Of a DNA stretch of 64,000 nucleotides, positions 6,400-16,928 are shown piece after piece. How positions within the stretch are numbered: the first letter of the stretch is position 1; each line of letters opens with the position of its first letter. The stretch is taken from positions 10,461 to 74,460 of the forward strand of contig LCRY01000001.1 in assembly GCA_001004905.1 (NCBI GenBank), written 5' to 3'. Origin of the DNA: Parcubacteria group bacterium GW2011_GWA1_56_13 (GTDB lineage: Bacteria; Patescibacteriota; Minisyncoccia; Phycocordibacterales; Phycocordibacteraceae). The notes under the pieces were generated by a model, which saw nothing but the letters and a program-made list of their open reading frames with translations, searched no databases and was not told the DNA's origin. Position numbers and translations under genes: made by a program.

Positions 6400-7500
6400 T
6401 TATTGATTCATTGGAGAAACAAGATAAAGGAGTGAGGTATCCCCGACCCCTTTTATGATAAGCGGTCGACCTATTCCTGCGGCAAGTAATGAAATGCTTT
6501 CGGTTGTTGTGAGCGAGAGCGCTGCCAAGAGGTATCGATGATTGAAGGAAAGGTCTAGAGGGCTTCCTGAGATATTCGCGCTCAAGGTTTCCGAGGATTC
6601 GCCGATATCGAAGTTTTTCGCAAAAAAGGAGAAGTTGTTCTTTTTTGGGTTGAAACTGATTTTTACTTTCTGGAACGCATCGGAGAATATTGTCGTTCTT
6701 TTAAGAGCCGTTTCGAAATCCTTTCTAAGCACGACTGCCTCTACGATCGATTCTTTTGGTATGATTTGCCGGTAATCGGGATAGACCGCATTTGTGAGAC
6801 GGGAGACGAACATTCCTTGAGAAGCAACAAAAGCGCATTGATGCTCGTCGAATGACATGATTATATCGTCGTCTGGCAGCGCTTGCGCTATTTCGAGAGC
6901 GTTCTTTGCGGGAATAAGGAATTTACCTTGCGTTCCCTTATTGGAAAGGGGAATTTTTTTCTCTGCAAGGCGGAATGAATCGGTGGCAACGGCTGTTAGC
7001 ACCCCCCCTTCTATAGACATATAAATGCTTGATAATTCGGGGCGAACCATAGAGGAGGACGCACATGGCGCAATGGAGGTAAAAAGGTTTTTTAAGAGAA
7101 CACCAGGAAGCACCACTCTATTTTTTGGATTTTCTGGGAATGGAATGGTTGGAAAATCATCATAAGGGACCGTTTTTATCAAACTTTTGCCCGTACCGCT
7201 CATAAGTGAGACAGTGTCGCCAGTATGCTCGATAGTGATATTTCCTTCCTGGGTGAGCGTTCCTGCTATTTGTTGTAGAACAGCTGCAGGGATCGCAACG
7301 ACCCCATCGCTTATATATTTTCCTTCTAATTTTAGATCGATACCTATTTCGAGATTTGTCGCGCGCATTTTTATACCATCATGTCCGGCAATAATCAGTA
7401 TTGAAGATAAAACAGGAAGTGTCGTATTCTTCCTTTCGGCAAACCTAGACACTTTATACACAGCGTCAGAGAATTCTTTTTTTTCTATTGAAATATTCAT
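6400..7500 (-). CDS. dnaN: DNA polymerase III beta sliding clamp
   Basis: 366 aa; MNISIEKKEFSDAVYKVSRF...LPVLSSILI beta-clamp N-terminus; immediately downstream of dnaA. Confidence 0.9.
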   Translation of the reverse strand: MNISIEKKEFSDAVYKVSRFAERKNTTLPVLSSILIIAGHDGIKMRATNLEIGIDLKLEGKYISDGVVAIPAAVLQQIAGTLTQEGNITIEHTGDTVSLMSGTGKSLIKTVPYDDFPTIPFPENPKNRVVLPGVLLKNLFTSIAPCASSSMVRPELSSIYMSIEGGVLTAVATDSFRLAEKKIPLSNKGTQGKFLIPAKNALEIAQALPDDDIIMSFDEHQCAFVASQGMFVSRLTNAVYPDYRQIIPKESIVEAVVLRKDFETALKRTTIFSDAFQKVKISFNPKKNNFSFFAKNFDIGESSETLSANISGSPLDLSFNHRYLLAALSLTTTESISLLAAGIGRPLIIKGVGDTSLLYLVSPMNQ

Positions 7501-7612: not shown

Positions 7613-8962
7613 TCATACAAGTAGGGTACGAATATTTTGTATTTCTTTTGCCAGGTCGTTATCCACAATCACTTCCCGTTTTATCTTCTCACAGGAGTGG
7701 ATAACTGTTGTGTGATCGCGCCCACCAAGTTTTGTTCCTATGGTCGGATACGAAATGCTAAAATCCTCCCGCAAAATATACATAATGACCTGTCTCGGAC
7801 GCACCACTTCTCTTCTGCGTGTTTTTTCATAAATACTTTCTTCGTCAATACCGTAAAATGCCGCCACCTTATCTACAACATTCTTAACCGAGATATTTTT
7901 CTGGGGCCGTGTGAATGAACGAAGGGATTGACGGACTTCGACGATATCTGGAGCGACTCCTTTCACCTGCGCATGGCACACAATACTATTCACCATACCC
8001 TCCAATTCGCGTATAGAGCCGCTCATAGTGGAAGCGACATACTCGACGACCTCATCAGAAAGTATGACGCCATGGGAAGCAGCTTTCTTCCTGGCAATTG
8101 CCATGCGCGATTCAGGATCCGGTTCCCCAATATCAACCGACATACCACTTGCCAAACGGCCTTTTAAACGCTCGGCGATATCGGGGATGGCTACCGGGGC
8201 CCGATCGGAGGAAAAAATGATCTGTTTATTTGTGTCATGAAGAGCATTGAACAGATGGAATAATTCCTCTTCACTCCGCTCCTTCTTCGAAAGAAATTGG
8301 ACGTCATCCATGATGAGAAGGTCATAATGACGGTATTTATCTTTGAACCGATTCGCAGTTCCCGCCTGAACGGCATCGGTGTAATCAATAACGAACTTTT
8401 CGGAGGTGAGGTAATACACCTTACGACCAGGGTATTGTTTTTTGTATTGATTGCCGATCGCCTGGATGAGATGGGTTTTCCCGCGCCCGGTATCTCCGTA
8501 AATAAAAAGAGGATTGTATGTTATACCAGGGCGCTCGAGTGCTGCTTGTGCGGCCGCATACGCGAGATTATTGAAAGAGCCGATAACAAACGTGTCGAAT
8601 GTATATCGTGGGTTCAAATTATCACTTTTATTGATATAGAATTCATCAAGGGGAAGTTCAAGTGCTCCCCGCACGTTCCTTACCTCCTTTAATGCCTTAC
8701 GCCGTTCGTCCTTTACGATGAGATACTCGATATTACGGAACTCATAGGACACATCACGGACTATTTTGAGAAGGAGTGTGTGGAACTTCTTGAGGTACCA
8801 GTCCTTGAAGAACTGACTCGGCACACCGATGAAGATGACACCATCCTCCACCTTCACGATAAAACTGTTGCGGAACCATGTATTGAAATTTGCCGGCGAT
8901 ATCGAGAGTTCCACCTGTGTGAGAATGTATTCCCAGAGCTCTCGAGGATTCCCTTTATCCAT
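7613..8962 (-). CDS. dnaA: Chromosomal replication initiator DnaA
   Basis: 449 aa; Walker A GDTGRGKTHLIQAIGN; AAA+ and C-terminal domain IV; classic dnaA-dnaN with divergent rpmH-rnpA-yidC. Confidence 0.95.
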   Translation of the reverse strand: MDKGNPRELWEYILTQVELSISPANFNTWFRNSFIVKVEDGVIFIGVPSQFFKDWYLKKFHTLLLKIVRDVSYEFRNIEYLIVKDERRKALKEVRNVRGALELPLDEFYINKSDNLNPRYTFDTFVIGSFNNLAYAAAQAALERPGITYNPLFIYGDTGRGKTHLIQAIGNQYKKQYPGRKVYYLTSEKFVIDYTDAVQAGTANRFKDKYRHYDLLIMDDVQFLSKKERSEEELFHLFNALHDTNKQIIFSSDRAPVAIPDIAERLKGRLASGMSVDIGEPDPESRMAIARKKAASHGVILSDEVVEYVASTMSGSIRELEGMVNSIVCHAQVKGVAPDIVEVRQSLRSFTRPQKNISVKNVVDKVAAFYGIDEESIYEKTRRREVVRPRQVIMYILREDFSISYPTIGTKLGGRDHTTVIHSCEKIKREVIVDNDLAKEIQNIRTLLV

Positions 8963-9565: not shown

Positions 9566-10309
9566 GTGATATCGACTTTTTTTCACGCCGTTTTTTATGA
9601 CCCGATTTATAATGCGCTCGTAGCGCTCGTAGCGCTCGTTCCCGGCTCTGATGTTGGTATCGCGGTCGTTCTCGTTACCATTATCATCCGGCTGATACTG
9701 CTTCCCTTCTCATTATCGGCAGCGCGCACTCAGCGGGCGATGAAAGTTTTGGAGCCGAAACTCAAAGAACTAAAGGAGAAACACAAAGGGAATAAAGAAA
9801 AAGAAGCACTCGAAACCCTTGGGCTCTACCGTGAGGCGCGAGTGAACCCGTTTGCGAGCATCCTTATGGTGTTCATTCAAATCCCCGTTCTGCTCGCCCT
9901 CTACTGGGTTTTCTATTATGAGCCGTTGTCCACCATCAACGTAGCGCAGCTCTACTCATTCACTCCCGTTCCACACGCGGTCTCACTCCAATTCCTCGGC
10001 CTCATATCGGTCGCCGGCAAGAGTTTGGTTCTTGCGGTCCTCGCCGGTCTTACCCAATTCTTTCAGGCGCATATGGCGCTCTCCGGGACGATGAAACCGT
10101 CGGATGCGAAGGGAATTCAGAACGACTTCCAGAGAGTCATGGGGATGCAGCTGAAATATGTATTTCCGTTCATTATCGGTGTTATTTCCTACACGACCTC
10201 CGGTGCCATCGCGCTCTACTTCATCACGACCAATCTTGCTGGTGCCCTCCAGGAGTGGCATGTGCAGCGTGTCATAGCCCGGGAAACCTCAGAGCGAGTA
10301 GCCCCATAA
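9566..10309 (+). CDS. yidC: Membrane protein insertase YidC/Oxa1, short form
   Basis: 247 aa polytopic membrane protein directly after rnpA; conserved YidC core helices. Confidence 0.8.
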   Translation: MISTFFHAVFYDPIYNALVALVALVPGSDVGIAVVLVTIIIRLILLPFSLSAARTQRAMKVLEPKLKELKEKHKGNKEKEALETLGLYREARVNPFASILMVFIQIPVLLALYWVFYYEPLSTINVAQLYSFTPVPHAVSLQFLGLISVAGKSLVLAVLAGLTQFFQAHMALSGTMKPSDAKGIQNDFQRVMGMQLKYVFPFIIGVISYTTSGAIALYFITTNLAGALQEWHVQRVIARETSERVAP

Positions 10310-11512
10310 CGAACCATCATTCTTGTTGGTGAATACAAGCACGGTGTCCAGCGAATCGACCGCAGGCGCCTCGACATCGAGAGATTCCTTGGTTTCTTTA
10401 GAGAAGTCCAGAATAAACTGGGCATAACGCCCAGTGACCTGTATTTTCCATATCCTGTCGGTAAATGACACGGTGCCCCGGTACCAATCATCGGGATACC
10501 GGGAGCCCTGAGGTGGATTCATGGGGACCCCGCAATAAATGGTAGAATCGTCCGCCGTCCACACGCATTTATCCGCGATGGACGCAATGGGAAGAGGGAT
10601 CTTCTCTCCGGTCGCCACGTTCGCTAATTCCATCTGCATTGCGCCGCCGGCGTCGGCGTAACTTACGAGCAACCATTTGCCGGAGTGGCTTGCTTTGGCG
10701 ACAAGACCGTTGCGTGGCCCCGCGACACGGGAAAAATATCCAGCGCCATCGACGAGGAATGCAGCGCCCGGAAGAGTGGCGGAAGGTTTGGTGTACGCGA
10801 GATATTGGTTCTTCCCGGCGAATGCGACGCGCAATGACGACAACGGCGTCGAAAATATCTGTGAAGCATGTGTGCCGTCGGTTCGGGCAAGCGAAGCGAC
10901 CGAGCCGTTCACGCCGGAGGAGAGTGTGAGCACGCCTGTCGAGGAAACGGCGATATCGGAAAGATTCTGTGGCAGGAAAAATCCATCAGAACCGTCTGTC
11001 CGTAAGGCGTAGGTGTTGGTGGTGGAGAAATCAGCGCCTGAAAGATAACGCACGAAAACCCCGGACGCATCCGGGAGCCAGACGGCGGACTGAATGCCCG
11101 GGATGGTCCGGTTGCTTATCCGCGTCAGTGTACCTGTGCGCACGGAATATGAATACACATTGCCACTTTGTCGCTCGATGTAACTCACGATGGTTTCCCC
11201 TGTCCCGAGCGAAGTGGAGGGAGACGCAGAACTCTCGCCATCGCTGTTCACCACCATCTCGCCCGGCACCACCGGCCCGGCGCTTATTTTCACGAGTCGG
11301 GGGGGAGGGGTCGGAGAAGTGTTCGTAGTAACGGTCGTCGTTCCGAACTCTTCGACGGGAGAAGACGCACCTTGCCCTGCGATCGGCAGGTCCACACTTC
11401 CAGCAGGAGCAACGACGACGCTTGCGGTATTGACGAAAAAGTAAAAATAGGCGGCGGTTCCGGTCCCGGCCAGGACTATCACGATGGCGATGATGGTAAG
11501 TGCGCGGCGCAT
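10289..11512 (-). CDS. Hypothetical N-terminally membrane-anchored extracellular protein (possible beta-propeller)
   Basis: N-terminal TM IIAIVIVLAGTGTAAYFYFF; Thr/Pro-rich linker; no recognised motif; last gene of the minus-strand T4SS-like operon. Confidence 0.5.
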   Translation of the reverse strand: MRRALTIIAIVIVLAGTGTAAYFYFFVNTASVVVAPAGSVDLPIAGQGASSPVEEFGTTTVTTNTSPTPPPRLVKISAGPVVPGEMVVNSDGESSASPSTSLGTGETIVSYIERQSGNVYSYSVRTGTLTRISNRTIPGIQSAVWLPDASGVFVRYLSGADFSTTNTYALRTDGSDGFFLPQNLSDIAVSSTGVLTLSSGVNGSVASLARTDGTHASQIFSTPLSSLRVAFAGKNQYLAYTKPSATLPGAAFLVDGAGYFSRVAGPRNGLVAKASHSGKWLLVSYADAGGAMQMELANVATGEKIPLPIASIADKCVWTADDSTIYCGVPMNPPQGSRYPDDWYRGTVSFTDRIWKIQVTGRYAQFILDFSKETKESLDVEAPAVDSLDTVLVFTNKNDGSLWGYSL

Positions 11513-11513
11513 A

Positions 11514-12209
11514 TCAATATCTCACACACGGATTTTGCACCGGCGTGGAACCCTGACCATCAGTGCAAGAAACTTGCGTGAGATTTTCTCTACAAAGGTC
11601 GTTGAAAAATTGTCGACAACCGTTTGAGTCCCTGGCACAAAAGTAACTTTTTCCATCAACAACGGCTTCTGGTTTCAGTTGAATACAGTAAGTACCCGTT
11701 TGAGGCGATGCATAGTAATCCTGCTGAAAACCAATGATCTGGCCGTTATTTATAGCGCGCGTACTTCCTGCTCGGACCGATTCCTGTACGTACTGCGTCT
11801 GTTGGGTTTGCGGTGAGCCGGACCTGGTATCAAGCGGGGGAAGGTTAACGGAGAGATTGAGGATACTCGGGTTGATGATGGAGAAGACGAGTGCGGGAGA
11901 GAGGACAAGCACGAGGCCGAAAATGGCGTTGTATATTTTTCCCTTGCTGTCCGTGAGAATACTGACATTATCTTGGTTCGTCGCTATTCGGAGCCCTTCC
12001 CAAACGATCATGAGGACGGCAAGTACCGCGGCAAGGCCAATGAGATATTTATAAAGATTGTTGAAAAATGCCGCGAGTCCTGCCGAGTCGGCCGTCACTC
12101 CTTGGGTCAGTCCCGGAATGGGGGCGAGCGGAATGAATCCATCCGCGAATGCATGCGGCGCTACGCCGAAGAAAAAGAGCGTCACGGCGATAAATAACAT
12201 TTTTTTCAT
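11514..12209 (-). CDS. Secreted/membrane protein with VirB2/TrbC-like topology and a Cys-rich C-terminal extension
   Basis: Signal peptide MKKMLFIAVTLFFFGVAPHAFA followed by two long hydrophobic segments; six Cys in the C-terminal 80 aa; 4-nt overlap with the upstream gene. Confidence 0.35.
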   Translation of the reverse strand: MKKMLFIAVTLFFFGVAPHAFADGFIPLAPIPGLTQGVTADSAGLAAFFNNLYKYLIGLAAVLAVLMIVWEGLRIATNQDNVSILTDSKGKIYNAIFGLVLVLSPALVFSIINPSILNLSVNLPPLDTRSGSPQTQQTQYVQESVRAGSTRAINNGQIIGFQQDYYASPQTGTYCIQLKPEAVVDGKSYFCARDSNGCRQFFNDLCRENLTQVSCTDGQGSTPVQNPCVRY

Positions 12210-13201
12210 AGGCCGAAGAAATTAGTGCTCGGTTTCGCCCCGAATATAAGCGGAAGATTCGCGGCGGCGGTTGCCGCGTTACCGGAGGAAGCGGTGAGCG
12301 AGAGCGAAGCGGTTCCCCTCCCCTCGCCGGTGGGGCGTAGTGTTATCAAGTTGCCGGTTTGTGCCGCCACGCCGTTTAAAAACCACTGGAGCGTTGGCAC
12401 GCCGCCCGAGAGAGGGAACGAGAAGGGCGCCGCGTAGAACGTGGCCTCCGCACCGCTCATGGTGTAACTGCCGGCGAGAGCACGTCCGAAGCGGATGCCG
12501 AGCAGTGGATCGTTCTCGTATATGTGCACGGAAGGTTCGAGCGCGGAAAACGACAGTGAAGCGCCGCCGACGATGGTCCCGGCGGCGTTCGTTACGGTGA
12601 CGGAGATTTCGCGTGTGCGGTACTGAAGCGGCGCAGCGGCAATGATGCTTGATTTTCCGATACCGGAGGAATCCATGACACGTGCACCGTCAACCGTCCA
12701 TGCGTAGGAGTATGTCGCCGGGATGGATGTTTTCCCACTGGCGTCCCTCAGGTTTGCAATGGCGATTATTCGTACGCTCCCTTCGAGCGGCACGAAAGGC
12801 TTGCCTGGGTAAAGAGGGGGGAAGGAGGATACTGGTTCGGCAATCAGCAGCACGTCCTGAGGTTGGAGAGAGACCGTCTGATTTGAAGAAATGCTGCCCG
12901 AGGATATTGTCACCCTTACGTTCATGATACTCCCCGCTTTCCCGAGTGGAACGGTGACGGGACGCACTGCGCCTTTATATATCTCCTTGCCCGAAGCCGA
13001 GACAGTGAGCGTTGCATTTGCAAGTTCCAGCGAATCGGACAGAACCGAGAGTGTGGCGTTGCTATAAGGAGCGGGATACTGCGGGTTAACCGAGAGCGTG
13101 AAGGCATTGCCGGTTATACTCCCGAGGTTTTCAAGAGATTGCGCCGATGCCAGAAACGGTAACACAAGGGCGACGCCACAGATCGCAAAAGCGAGACGCA
13201 T
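12206..13201 (-). CDS. Hypothetical secreted protein (Ig-like or repetitive beta-rich)
   Basis: Signal peptide MRLAFAICGVALVLPFLASAQS; Ser/Thr-rich; operon with the VirB4-like gene. Confidence 0.5.
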   Translation of the reverse strand: MRLAFAICGVALVLPFLASAQSLENLGSITGNAFTLSVNPQYPAPYSNATLSVLSDSLELANATLTVSASGKEIYKGAVRPVTVPLGKAGSIMNVRVTISSGSISSNQTVSLQPQDVLLIAEPVSSFPPLYPGKPFVPLEGSVRIIAIANLRDASGKTSIPATYSYAWTVDGARVMDSSGIGKSSIIAAAPLQYRTREISVTVTNAAGTIVGGASLSFSALEPSVHIYENDPLLGIRFGRALAGSYTMSGAEATFYAAPFSFPLSGGVPTLQWFLNGVAAQTGNLITLRPTGEGRGTASLSLTASSGNAATAAANLPLIFGAKPSTNFFGL

Positions 13202-13231: not shown

Positions 13232-13900
13232 CTACGCCGCCTCACGCGCTTTTTCGGGGATTCCGTATTCGCCGCCCTCGGCGTGCGCCTGTTCGTACCA
13301 CTCATCATCGGCCGCCTCTGTTTCCGCGCGGTCCTGCAAAAGCCGGGCCATCCGCCGGTTCTGTTGCTGTAGCTGGGAGGCGGCTTGTTCTTTTTCGAAT
13401 GTTTGCAGCGCCGCCTTTTCCACCCGTATCTGCGTACGGTACATTTTCCACACGACGAGAGTAATAACAGGAACGGATCCGACGATAGGGATCTCGCTTA
13501 CCAGCAAACTTCCGGCGAACCACAACGCATTTTCTTTGAATATACGTCCATTCGTGACGAGAAGTATGATCCCAACAGTAAGCCATCCGGCAAATCCTAC
13601 CGCCATCGCCATTATCACGCCGAATGGCGCGATCATTTCTATAGCGACGGCTCCCACGAGCCCCGCGCCGGCCGTGCATACAAGAGCGGCCGTCTTCGTT
13701 CCAAGTAGCCCGAATGTCCACGCCTCCAAGGTGCCGCTCGTCGTTATCGTGCAGTAGAGGGCGGCAAGCGCGGGTCCAAAAAACCAAAACATCTCGAACA
13801 TCAAGCGCAGTGCATCAAAAATGGCGGAGACCGCCAGCACGGGGGTAGCTCTTCCCCACATCATCACCTTTGGCGGAGCACTATTTCTTTTCTGCGGCAT
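13232..13900 (-). CDS. Hypothetical polytopic membrane protein with a C-terminal coiled-coil tail
   Basis: 4-5 predicted TM helices; Gln/charged-rich C-terminal tail; located between the VirB4-like and secreted genes. Confidence 0.5.
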   Translation of the reverse strand: MPQKRNSAPPKVMMWGRATPVLAVSAIFDALRLMFEMFWFFGPALAALYCTITTSGTLEAWTFGLLGTKTAALVCTAGAGLVGAVAIEMIAPFGVIMAMAVGFAGWLTVGIILLVTNGRIFKENALWFAGSLLVSEIPIVGSVPVITLVVWKMYRTQIRVEKAALQTFEKEQAASQLQQQNRRMARLLQDRAETEAADDEWYEQAHAEGGEYGIPEKAREAA

Positions 13901-14012: not shown

Positions 14013-15842
14013 CTATGCTTTTTTGTCCTGCTGGGCATACCGCTCTTTCTCCTGCTTGATGGCGAGGAGCTGGGACGGGTCGGACGTGATTATCTGGTCC
14101 TCGGTATAGCTAGCCACTACCTTGATGGCGACGTGTTTCAGGCCTGCGAAAAAGAGCCCTTCGCCCACGCCGGCCTCGAGCAGGAGATATTTTTCCTCGT
14201 CGGTGAGGTTGAATGTCTCCTGCAGAACGTTGATGGTCGTCGGCGACTGCTTGAGGAGGAGTTGGAGCGACGAGTTCGTGAGAATGGGCCGTCCGTAGGG
14301 GCTCTTGAGGAAGTCCTCCACGTCCTGCGTAATGGTGCAGACGCCCAGGTAGTATTTGCGCCCGCGCTTGGCCACCGAGTAGAGGAAGGAAGCGGTGTCT
14401 TCGCTCTTCATCATCCACCACGCCTCGTCAATGATGAGAAGACGCTTCTTCAGTTCGTGGCGCACGGCGTTCCAGATGTAGTGCGTGATGATGTACATCG
14501 CGACCGGCTTCAATTCGTCCTCCATGTCGCGCACCGAGAAGACGGCGAATTGCTGTTTGATGTCTATATTGGTCGGCTGGTTGAGAAATCCCGCCCAGGT
14601 GCCGCGCGTATATTTCGAGAGCCGTTCGACCAAGGACTCGCTCCCTTCCATGCCGGAGAGTACCTGCTCGAAGTCGGAGAGGAGCGGCGGTTCGGCGCCG
14701 GTAAAGTCGGCGTCGCCGGTGATGTCTTTGAGCGCGTACGTCTCGCTGATGGCGCGGTCGACGATAGCGTCCTCTTCGGGCGAGAGGCCGGAAAGCATGA
14801 TACGGAAGAGCCCGACGAGCGCGATGATGTTTGACCGCAGGATGTCTTTCGGGTCCTCGTCTTCTTTGACCGCCGGAAGATCGAACGGGTTTATGTGGTG
14901 CTCGGAGGAGAGCGAAATGTGGAACGATCGGCCGCCGGTCGCCTCTGCGAGCTGGTCATATTCGCGTTCCGGATCGATGACGATGACGTCGGTGCCGAAC
15001 ATGAGGGAGCGAAGCACTTCAAGCTTCGTCGCGTAGCTCTTCCCGGACCCGGACTTTGCGAAAATGACCGAGTTGTAATTCTCAAGCGAAAAGCGGTCGA
15101 AGAGAATAAGCGAAGAATTGTGCCGGTTGATGCCGTAGAGGATGCCACGGTCGCTCGTGAGGTCGAACGAGACAAAGGGGAAGAGCGAAGAGAGCGGCGA
15201 GGAATTCAGCTTCGAGTTAACAAGGAGCTCGTCGGTTCCGAGCGGAAGGCATGAACGGAACCCCTGCTCCTGCTGGAACAGCGCCGGTTTCGTGTAAACG
15301 AGTTTTGCATCGAGGATACCTCGGATATTTCCTTCGGTTTTGTCGATCTCCTCCTTTGAGTCGCCGTAGAGCGCGAGGTAGAGCCCCACTTCAAAGAGTT
15401 TTTCCTGTGCTTGCTGGAGATTGTTGCGCAGCGTCTCCAGATCCTGATAGGCGGTATCAAGCAGGGGGTCGCGCACGAGTCCCTTCGCCTCACGCTCGTT
15501 GATCTGACTCTCTACTTCCGCAACTTTTTTCTGGAAATCACGAAGTGCCTGCGCCGTCTCGATCGGATGGATGAATACGGAAACGTCGAGCACCTTATCA
15601 AGGTTAATGACCGGCGAGAACCATCCGTCGGTGAGGAACCGCGGGTAGGAAATGGTGTAAAAAGCGCGGACGAACTTCTCCCCGAGCTCGATCTCGCGCG
15701 GGCCGATGGAAAGAGCCGTCGGAGCGATCGTATCGACGAGTTCCAAGGAACCCTGTTTGTAGATATCTTTCGGCAAGACCGGCACGACCATCTGGTCTTG
15801 CGAGTGTTCCTTCTTCCGGTTCAAAAAATCGAGGAGTGACAT
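14013..15842 (-). CDS. VirB4/TrbE/CagE-family type IV secretion ATPase (C-terminal ATPase portion)
   Basis: Walker A FAKSGSGKSY; DEAW-type Walker B LLIIDEAWWMM; 609 aa. Confidence 0.8.
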   Translation of the reverse strand: MSLLDFLNRKKEHSQDQMVVPVLPKDIYKQGSLELVDTIAPTALSIGPREIELGEKFVRAFYTISYPRFLTDGWFSPVINLDKVLDVSVFIHPIETAQALRDFQKKVAEVESQINEREAKGLVRDPLLDTAYQDLETLRNNLQQAQEKLFEVGLYLALYGDSKEEIDKTEGNIRGILDAKLVYTKPALFQQEQGFRSCLPLGTDELLVNSKLNSSPLSSLFPFVSFDLTSDRGILYGINRHNSSLILFDRFSLENYNSVIFAKSGSGKSYATKLEVLRSLMFGTDVIVIDPEREYDQLAEATGGRSFHISLSSEHHINPFDLPAVKEDEDPKDILRSNIIALVGLFRIMLSGLSPEEDAIVDRAISETYALKDITGDADFTGAEPPLLSDFEQVLSGMEGSESLVERLSKYTRGTWAGFLNQPTNIDIKQQFAVFSVRDMEDELKPVAMYIITHYIWNAVRHELKKRLLIIDEAWWMMKSEDTASFLYSVAKRGRKYYLGVCTITQDVEDFLKSPYGRPILTNSSLQLLLKQSPTTINVLQETFNLTDEEKYLLLEAGVGEGLFFAGLKHVAIKVVASYTEDQIITSDPSQLLAIKQEKERYAQQDKKA

Positions 15843-15844
15843 AA

Positions 15845-16480
15845 TCAGTTGTCGAGGCGAATGGGGTTCTCAAGCTCTCCGGGATTGAAGGAACGGTACA
15901 AGAGTTCGATGATCTCCTCGGTTCCGAGCGGAACCGCTCGTACGCCGGTGCCGACGAGCCCTTCCGCGACGAGCGAGAGCCGCTGCTCAAGTTGCGCGCG
16001 GTCCTGCTCGAACGAGGCCTCTTGGGCGGCGCTCTTTACCGATGCGCTTTCGCGCTTCAGAAAGCTGACGGTCGCTGCGGCGGACACGTGCGGCGTGTAC
16101 GGCACGATGATGTAGAACGATTTTGTCATGATATTCGCTTGGTCCGTAAACGAGCGTACGAACTCGACGTACTCGTGCAACTGGATGCGCATAAGCTCGG
16201 TCTTTTGCTCCGGCGCTTTCTCTGCAAGTAGGGCGAGATACGGGCGCAGGTCCATACGGCGCGAATTGATGACGATCTGGATGGAAAAATCGAGCGTATT
16301 GAGAAAATTCTGGAAGCCAAGGACGATGGCATGCTGTTCATCGGCGGATTTAAGGCCGAAGTTGATGGAAGAACAGATAAGTACGCCGCGATAGCCGCCG
16401 TCTTTGAGGACGATAGTTCCGTTCCGTATCTCTTTGACCGGAACGAACTGCTGCGTTGCGCCTGCCGATTTAGTCGCCAT
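15845..16480 (-). CDS. VirB4 N-terminal-domain-like protein (possibly the split N-terminal part of the adjacent VirB4)
   Basis: 211 aa. The stop (15845-15847) lies 2 nt from the ATG (15840-15842) of the VirB4 ATPase ORF in a different frame. Combined 820 aa matches a full-length VirB4. Confidence 0.5.
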   Translation of the reverse strand: MATKSAGATQQFVPVKEIRNGTIVLKDGGYRGVLICSSINFGLKSADEQHAIVLGFQNFLNTLDFSIQIVINSRRMDLRPYLALLAEKAPEQKTELMRIQLHEYVEFVRSFTDQANIMTKSFYIIVPYTPHVSAAATVSFLKRESASVKSAAQEASFEQDRAQLEQRLSLVAEGLVGTGVRAVPLGTEEIIELLYRSFNPGELENPIRLDN

Positions 16481-16481
16481 A

Positions 16482-16928
16482 TCAAGTATCGCGTTCAGCG
16501 GGATTCACATCTCCCTTTTTTACGTCAAGTGACCACGCGAGTTCGGAGAGTTTCCCTCGGGTGAGCTTCGGCGTGCCACGCCTGGGTAGCTGCGCCGCCT
16601 CGGCAGCCGCCGCTGCAGCGGTCGCGGCGGTATATTCCTTGACCCCCGTCTCTTTATGTTTCCAGAGGAAGAATTTCGCGCCGGTGTAATAATTGAAACC
16701 GGCCTCCAGGATCTCGATAAATGCCTTGCCGTTCACCTTATAGAATGCGAGTGCCGCGCCGAATCCTGCCACGAGGGCCGAGAGCACGATCGCGAAGATC
16801 ATCGGCAGATAAACGAAGAACACGACGCAAAGCCCCGCAGCGCCGGCGATATAGATGAATTGTTTGAGGGTCAGAGGCCCGATGATCTTGTCCTCTACCT
16901 CGATGAACTGCGGCACTTGGTACTCCAT
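16482..16928 (-). CDS. PrgI-family (VirB3-like) small membrane protein
   Basis: N-terminus MEYQVPQFIEVEDKIIGPLTLKQFIYIAGAAG matches the PrgI-family start (VP..I..EDKI.GPLT..Q.IY); two TM segments; first gene of the operon. Confidence 0.55.
   Translation of the reverse strand: MEYQVPQFIEVEDKIIGPLTLKQFIYIAGAAGLCVVFFVYLPMIFAIVLSALVAGFGAALAFYKVNGKAFIEILEAGFNYYTGAKFFLWKHKETGVKEYTAATAAAAAAEAAQLPRRGTPKLTRGKLSELAWSLDVKKGDVNPAERDT

Follow-up and report, generated by a model that had tools for sequence, protein, structure and literature searches.

Here we describe the divided virB4 locus in a stretch of 64,000 nucleotides (nt) from Parcubacteria group bacterium GW2011_GWA1_56_13 (assembly GCA_001004905.1, contig LCRY01000001.1, positions 10,461 to 74,460 of the forward strand; hereafter the window means this whole stretch). 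A VirB4 protein of a type IV secretion system (T4SS) is distributed here over two adjacent open reading frames (ORFs) of 211 and 609 amino acids (aa). These are almost certainly two real and separately translated genes which, together with the gene preceding them, make up a prgI/virB3-like, trsD-like and virB4 trio of a chromosomal T4SS of Patescibacteria, and which carry an ancient split of VirB4 shared with pGO1/pSK41. The cluster is a chromosomal T4SS of the Kaiserbacteria/Paceibacteria type. A preliminary description of this DNA had left four readings side by side, namely a natural two-subunit VirB4, a frameshift mutation or pseudogene, a programmed frameshift, and a sequencing error. The first of these was borne out, whereas the other three are refuted by independent assemblies, by 78 genomes with two genes, by purifying selection on each gene in its own frame and by the lack of a slippery site. 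What that description had missed is the place of the upstream gene, as a remote homologue, in the TrsD/TraD family (Pfam "TraC-like"), and the fact that such a pair has been published as the usual arrangement in Patescibacteria (PMC12102498). The features at the center of this analysis, in the order of transcription, are the following.

16482-16928, minus strand: PrgI/VirB3-like small membrane protein (148 aa), whose gene opens the trio (Pfam PF12666)
15845-16480, minus strand: TrsD-like or "TraC-like" protein of 211 aa, encoded on its own and homologous to the N-terminal ~200 residues of VirB4 (NCBIfam and fold)
15840-15847, minus strand: junction composed of TGA (15847-15845), tt (15844-15843) and ATG (15842-15840), a tight junction of the kind usual between neighboring genes of an operon
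14013-15842, minus strand: VirB4-type ATPase of 609 aa, without the first ~180 profile positions of full-length VirB4 (NCBIfam NF045971)

Relationship of the two proteins to VirB4

The 609-aa ORF reached the curated threshold of the NCBIfam model NF045971 (conju_CD1110) with 373.3 bits (cut-off 325; E = 2.3e-111), and its match extends over positions 183-733 of the 752 in this profile. Its Pfam matches were P-loop_TraG, AAA_10 and DUF87, and the translation contains a Walker A motif (SGSGKS) and a Walker B-like motif (LLIIDEAW). Specifically, residues 232-587 match the VirB4 C-terminal domain in PDB entry 4AG5 (E = 1e-41), while residues 129-561 align to residues 300-741 of TrwK, the VirB4 of R388 (reference sequence NC_028464). 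This polypeptide lacks a complete N-terminal domain, and it is the upstream gene that supplies the rest. Judged from these alignments, the 609-aa protein is predicted to comprise the rest of the VirB4 N-terminal domain followed by the ATPase domain.

The 211-aa ORF matches the same CD1110 VirB4 profile at positions 1-166 (NCBIfam, E = 1.8e-7), the mycoplasma VirB4 model VirB4_plasma (E = 2.8e-8), and VirB4_CagE at positions 7-169. The two ORFs thus cover complementary and non-overlapping parts of a single VirB4 profile (1-166 and 183-733), with the last 37 aa of the first protein and the first 30 aa of the ATPase lying outside the matches, compared to 16 profile positions between them. Precomputed database annotation assigns the Pfam family PF26593 ("TraC-like") to the exact 211-aa protein and to all of its listed homologues.

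A second line of evidence comes from a relative in which both parts form one chain. This single-chain VirB4 of 797 aa, P0215 (L087:544-2937; GCA_964615945.1, contig CAZTUR010000004.1), is encoded in another metagenome-assembled genome, in an otherwise similar locus with the order PrgI-VirB4-dnaA. Residues 5-213 of P0215 align to residues 6-204 of the 211-aa protein (42% identity) and residues 226-796 to residues 31-600 of the ATPase (57% identity), the TrsD-like and ATPase parts being joined by a 12-residue linker. The fused form was found on a single contig only.

Structure prediction provided the third line. An AlphaFold2 model of the 211-aa protein, built on an 81-sequence alignment, had a mean predicted local distance difference test score (pLDDT) of 80.6 and a predicted template modeling score (pTM) of 0.68. 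The top 14 Foldseek matches of this model in the PDB were all TrwK/VirB4 chains of R388 (prob 0.99-1.00, ~174-210 alignment columns, TMq 0.36-0.53), and the next match after them had a prob of 0.33. On these three independent lines, i.e., profile coverage, the fused relative and the fold, the small protein is the VirB4 N-terminus, which upholds the resemblance noted in the preliminary description. More precisely, it is the counterpart of the first half of the N-terminal domain of single-chain VirB4. Since this domain spans residues 15-400 in TrwK (PMC9259494), the split lies inside it.

Some results weigh against this assignment. The 211-aa ORF scored only 17.1 bits (E = 0.0038) against the TrsD/TraD model NF041427, whose cut-off is 200, and a local Pfam scan of this ORF with hmmscan returned no family. 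A 42-sequence profile of the 211-aa family aligned to TrsD of plasmid pSK41 with hhalign over 163 columns, covering nearly the whole of TrsD (E = 1.1e-4), but with a probability of only 56%. Taken with the low model score, this means that membership in TrsD in the strict sense amounts to remote homology. The hhalign comparison of the family profile with R388 TrwK was insignificant (E = 0.042, probability 1%), although still in the expected register, with residues 109-207 of the 211-aa protein placed on TrwK 109-209. Against all PDB sequences the profile found only a chance match, a ketoacyl-ACP reductase (E = 0.28), and the link of the 211-aa protein to solved VirB4 structures therefore rests on the fold and on intermediate profiles. 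Foldseek, for its part, reports no residue ranges of TrwK for these matches.

These results bear on the most serious competing explanation, according to which the 211-aa protein is an unrelated accessory and the 609-aa protein alone is a complete, short VirB4. The ATPase ORF does pass the curated CD1110 threshold by itself, and the matches of the 211-aa ORF to the VirB4 and TrsD models of NCBIfam are all far below the curated cut-offs. We nevertheless consider an unrelated accessory quite improbable, because the small protein covers the complementary part of one VirB4 profile, is collinear with the fused P0215, has a predicted fold that matches only VirB4 chains in the PDB, and is encoded at a conserved position beside the ATPase.

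Conservation of the gene junction

On the minus strand the junction reads ...CTC GAC AAC TGA tt ATG TCA CTC CTC..., so that the stop codon, the start codon and the difference in frame are all as first described, with a 2-nt spacer (15844-15843) between the stop of the 211-aa ORF and the ATG of the 609-aa ORF. The second ORF begins 5 nt past the first base of the stop, which gives a frame offset of 2, equivalent to -1. The summed length of 820 aa (211 plus 609) was likewise confirmed. The preceding junction is of the same kind, with 1 nt between the stop of the 148-aa ORF and the ATG of the 211-aa ORF (TGA t ATG).

Comparison of orthologous loci for the presence of one or two genes, a check that the preliminary description had proposed, gave a uniform answer. 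We fetched 80 loci from species-representative genomes, and in the 78 where both genes could be scored, i.e., in 78/78 other species-level genomes, two separate genes were present. A PrgI-like gene stands upstream of the pair in the related loci too. The junctions of these 78 loci are distributed as follows.

Spacer of 8 nt or less: 54 of 78 loci
Spacer of 10-113 nt: 17 of 78 loci
Spacer of 552-978 nt: 6 of 78 loci
Overlap of 14 nt: 1 of 78 loci
Frame offset of 0, 1 or 2: 25, 30 and 23 of 78 loci, respectively
Stop codon of the first gene: TAA, TAG and TGA all occur among the 78 loci

The distribution of frames is that of independent genes, and even the 25 in-frame pairs are parted by a stop codon. 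The ATG of the ATPase is kept in 78/78 loci. The end of the first protein (P-I-R-L-D-x) is conserved through synonymous turnover, with CGC, CGT, AGA and AGG all used for the arginine and CTC, CTA, CTT, TTG and TTA for the leucine, and the start of the second protein (M-A/S-L-L-D-F-L) is likewise conserved through synonymous codon changes. Each gene is therefore under purifying selection in its own frame up to the junction.

The stand-alone state of the small protein is equally widespread in sequence databases. We retrieved 5114 homologues at E<=1e-3, and the best 120 of them were all 211-228 aa long, with 84-100% identity. Searching 1.84 billion cluster representatives exhaustively yielded 2447 related ones, and among the best 150 (37-86% identity) full VirB4 length was found in one, P0215. 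A profile search added 120 stand-alone proteins of 205-223 aa with ~44-57% identity to the window protein. The exact 211-aa protein occurs in records named Candidatus Kaiserbacteria or Paceibacterota, and the identical protein and junction were present on 14 contigs, of which the six inspected were separate records from NCBI, ENA, JGI and Logan. An identical junction on multiple independent contigs, together with the pair in 78 genomes, shows that the arrangement is neither chance nor an assembly artefact.

Among these homologues, P0164, P0207 and P0195 carry low-complexity extensions rich in Q and P, either N-terminal (~100-140 aa) or C-terminal (~230 aa). Candidate PrgI-TrsD fusions, i.e., proteins with matches starting at residues 76-143, were rejected, because the two that were read, P0164 and P0207, carry such Q/P-rich extensions instead.

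The remaining explanations would turn the pair into one gene, either broken or recoded. A sequencing or assembly error, by which a 1-nt insertion or deletion broke a single 820-aa virB4, would account for two ORFs that lie 2 nt apart in different frames and add up to a normal VirB4 length, and P0215 shows that one relative does have a single ORF. However, the same junction recurs in the six inspected contigs, which derive from different samples and assemblers, and the 78 other species have two genes at spacers from -14 to 978 nt and at all offsets, including the in-frame pairs with a stop, always with the ATG retained. P0215 itself lacks both the conserved PIRLD tail and the MxLLDFL head; it therefore differs by more than 1 nt and did not arise from a split gene through a single-nucleotide repair, but through a deletion or a divergent linker. 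An error of this kind thus has next to no chance of being the explanation.

A recently inactivated virB4, whether a frameshift mutation or a pseudogene, is favored by the frame difference and by nothing further. Both ORFs are intact and their length is conserved in thousands of homologues, synonymous turnover accompanies amino-acid conservation up to the first stop and from the second ATG, and the ATPase motifs are intact in a protein that scores above the curated CD1110 cut-off. Neither a ratio of nonsynonymous to synonymous substitution (dN/dS) near 1 nor disrupted motifs were seen. Moreover, in a cultivated relative, Ca. Southlakia epibionticum ML1, the TrsD homologue is listed among the essential genes (PMC12102498). 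Inactivation can be regarded as practically eliminated.

Equally little probability attaches to a programmed -1 ribosomal frameshift or stop read-through that would yield a fused 820-aa VirB4 beside the separate products, even though the abutting ORFs have an offset equivalent to -1. The slippery heptamer (X_XXY_YYZ) that the preliminary description had suggested looking for did not turn up in the last 93 nt of the 211-aa ORF of the window, and the ATPase frame has a stop 10 codons upstream of its ATG. Frame relation (25/30/23) and spacer length both vary among the relatives, so that no single recoding mechanism could be conserved. Frameshift genes of the dnaX, prfB and IS3-transposase type are characterized by a slippery site and a conserved frame relation, and the locus has neither. 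Two real genes therefore remain as the explanation of the locus, and in annotation the pair should be kept as two genes and not marked as a frameshift or pseudogene of virB4, since it represents the normal state of an ancient and widespread split.

Spacers in some relatives have features of their own. An AT-rich spacer of 30-50 nt with a repeated TTTAAATATTT-like motif was observed in L038, L043, L044, L046, L052, L053, L075, L079-L081 and L084, and might act as an operon-internal promoter or regulatory element. The last of these loci (L084, DAHXMN010000149.1) is a 2-kb contig with the gene pair at 76% identity that was binned as Candidatus Woesearchaeota archaeon, where it is probably a binning contaminant.

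Six of the 78 related genomes contain an inserted cassette (552-978 nt) that occupies precisely the interval from the stop of the TrsD-like gene to the ATG of virB4, at the following positions.

L015: 4125-4850
L023: 3475-4365
L055: 1896-2880
L062: 4128-4940
L073: 610-1170
L082: 4125-5010

The TrsD-like stop is TAG in all six, and at least one whole gene was found within the inserted DNA wherever these six loci were checked. A repeat scan found the cassettes of L082 and L055 to be flanked by inverted repeats of ~17-24 nt made of CTAG(G/A)GC-like units, and found no inverted repeats in the cassette of L062. The cassette of L082 encodes a four-helix-bundle protein of the 23S-rRNA-intervening-sequence (IVS) family PF05635 (E = 4.5e-37) and a second, cargo ORF with a DUF5680 domain; a similar ORF starting MQTFRDL... 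was recognized by eye in the other copies. The cassette looks like a small mobile element that may prefer the trsD-virB4 junction as its target. Its inverted repeat had 0 matches in the window.

The T4SS cluster and a proposed role for the free subunit

The trio lies within a larger set of T4SS genes, and the parts co-located in the window comprise VirB4 (373 bits), PrgI (38 bits), T4SS_pilin (30.2 bits) and the TrsD-like gene. The 148-aa ORF matched Pfam PF12666 PrgI with E = 2.5e-9 (38 bits; cut-off 27). Downstream of virB4, the following genes were identified.

13232-13900, minus strand: hydrophobic protein of 222 aa, next downstream gene of the cluster (ORF list; position conserved in related loci)
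12206-13201, minus strand: protein of 331 aa with a hydrophobic N-terminus, conserved in related loci
11514-12209, minus strand: VirB2-like T4SS pilin of 231 aa (Pfam PF18895 T4SS_pilin)
10289-11512, minus strand: conserved ORF of the cluster, 407 aa (ORF list)
7613-8962, minus strand: dnaA (Pfam Bac_DnaA, E = 8.6e-62, with DnaA_N and Bac_DnaA_C)
6400-7500, minus strand: dnaN (Pfam DNA_pol3_beta, all three domains)

The pilin assignment is based on PF18895 (E = 4.9e-7, 30.2 bits; cut-off 26.6) and on a TrbC/VirB2 match (E = 1.2e-4); the start of the pilin-like gene is overlapped by 4 nt by the 3' end of the 331-aa gene. Family scans assigned no Pfam or NCBIfam family at threshold to the 222-, 331- and 407-aa ORFs, one of which may correspond to the VirB6- or VirB8-like protein that systems of this type are expected to contain. 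As dnaN and dnaA are located ~5 kb downstream of virB4, the T4SS cluster adjoins the probable replication origin.

A role for the free subunit can be proposed by analogy with R388, in which VirB3 wraps the N-terminal domain of VirB4 and VirB4 dimerises through that same domain (PMC9259494). The TrsD-like subunit would bind the ATPase non-covalently and thereby complete a full VirB4 N-terminal domain. Because VirB3 wraps this domain in R388, the pair would here link the ATPase with the PrgI/VirB3-like membrane protein, and the TrsD-like protein may mediate docking to the latter, VirB4 oligomerisation, or both. An N-terminal domain made of two polypeptides and broken as in pGO1/pSK41 thus offers a handle on how the ATPase docks to VirB3/PrgI. 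Spacers of 1-2 nt and the lack of a Shine-Dalgarno motif would suit coupling by termination and reinitiation along prgI, trsD and virB4, which could keep the three proteins in matched amounts; judging from the spacing, translation is probably coupled in this genome.

Some points weigh against this scheme. Binding of the 211-aa protein to the ATPase or to PrgI is a step that we infer. No Shine-Dalgarno-like motif was found within 20 nt of the ATPase ATG in the window, and 23/78 relatives have spacers of at least 10 nt, reaching 978 nt. With spacers from 10 nt to ~1 kb in these relatives, coupling cannot be essential and is plausible only in the genomes with tight junctions.

The break inside the N-terminal domain might also be functionally exploited rather than neutral, which we regard as unlikely. 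A free TrsD-like subunit could then set the stoichiometry or the timing with which the VirB4 hexamer docks onto PrgI/VirB3, for instance by being present on only some VirB4 copies, in parallel to the "central" and "outside" VirB4 of R388. If so, the break would provide a step at which assembly is regulated, in a T4SS that the epibiotic lifestyle requires.

Comparison with known systems

The closest published counterpart is the Patescibacteria system with TrsD and VirB4 described by Quinonero-Coronel et al. 2025 (PMC12102498), which shares with the window the PrgI/VirB3-like protein, the TrsD-like protein, VirB4, the VirB2-like pilin and the chromosomal position beside dnaA. In that study, TrsD was described as remotely homologous to the VirB4 N-terminus and outnumbered all other T4SS components retrieved from Patescibacteria, with 2,272 homologues of which 1,664 adjoin virB4, and the T4SS clusters are often located near dnaA. 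The Patescibacteria T4SS has been reported as essential for epibiotic growth. No substantive difference separates the window locus from this system, and the locus fits the published description in every tested respect. The gene pair, the homology to the VirB4 N-terminus and the prevalence in Patescibacteria are thus already published and not new in kind. A literature search on "split VirB4" as such found no paper. The present additions are modest and consist of the spacing and frame statistics, the conserved termini, the split point of TrsE in pSK41, the fold match to TrwK, and one fused variant.

On the one hand, single-chain VirB4 proteins, such as R388 TrwK (823 aa) and the CD1110 family of Gram-positive integrative and conjugative elements, are collinear with the 820-aa pair and differ from it in that the window polypeptide is broken inside the N-terminal domain. 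On the other hand, the SCO6880-family proteins of Actinobacteria and the VirB3-VirB4 fusions show that the VirB3, VirB4-N and VirB4-ATPase modules are shuffled between polypeptides in evolution. The 477-position SCO6880 model weakly matches PrgI (12-104), the 211-aa ORF (221-290) and the start of the ATPase (363-476). Compared to the window, these proteins have their break further downstream and their membrane module fused to the N-terminal domain; with matches of ~16-19 bits against a cut-off of 60, they serve as an analogy only.

The same break is found in pSK41 of Staphylococcus aureus. TrsD/TrsE (TraD/TraE) of pSK41/pGO1 represent the pGO1 subclass of MPF-FATA, and pSK41 has the same gene order, with a small gene in the VirB3 position, trsD (227 aa) and the DUF87/VirB4 ATPase TrsE (672 aa). 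A protein of ~200-230 aa with a VirB3/PrgI-like gene upstream and a VirB4-type ATPase downstream occurs in the window, in its relatives and in pSK41. The sequences are very distant, with 23% identity for the ATPase and ~17% for TrsD. Moreover, pSK41, a conjugative plasmid, encodes both a relaxase and a coupling protein. Its Patescibacteria counterpart lies on the chromosome and, as described in the literature, is mostly devoid of a relaxase and functions in the epibiotic lifestyle. Residue 3 of the window ATPase nevertheless aligns to residue 2 of pSK41 TrsE (LLDFLNRKK versus MAFLKKKK; E = 2e-37), and since the two ATPases align from their first residues, the split point is identical in the window and in TrsD/TrsE of pSK41.

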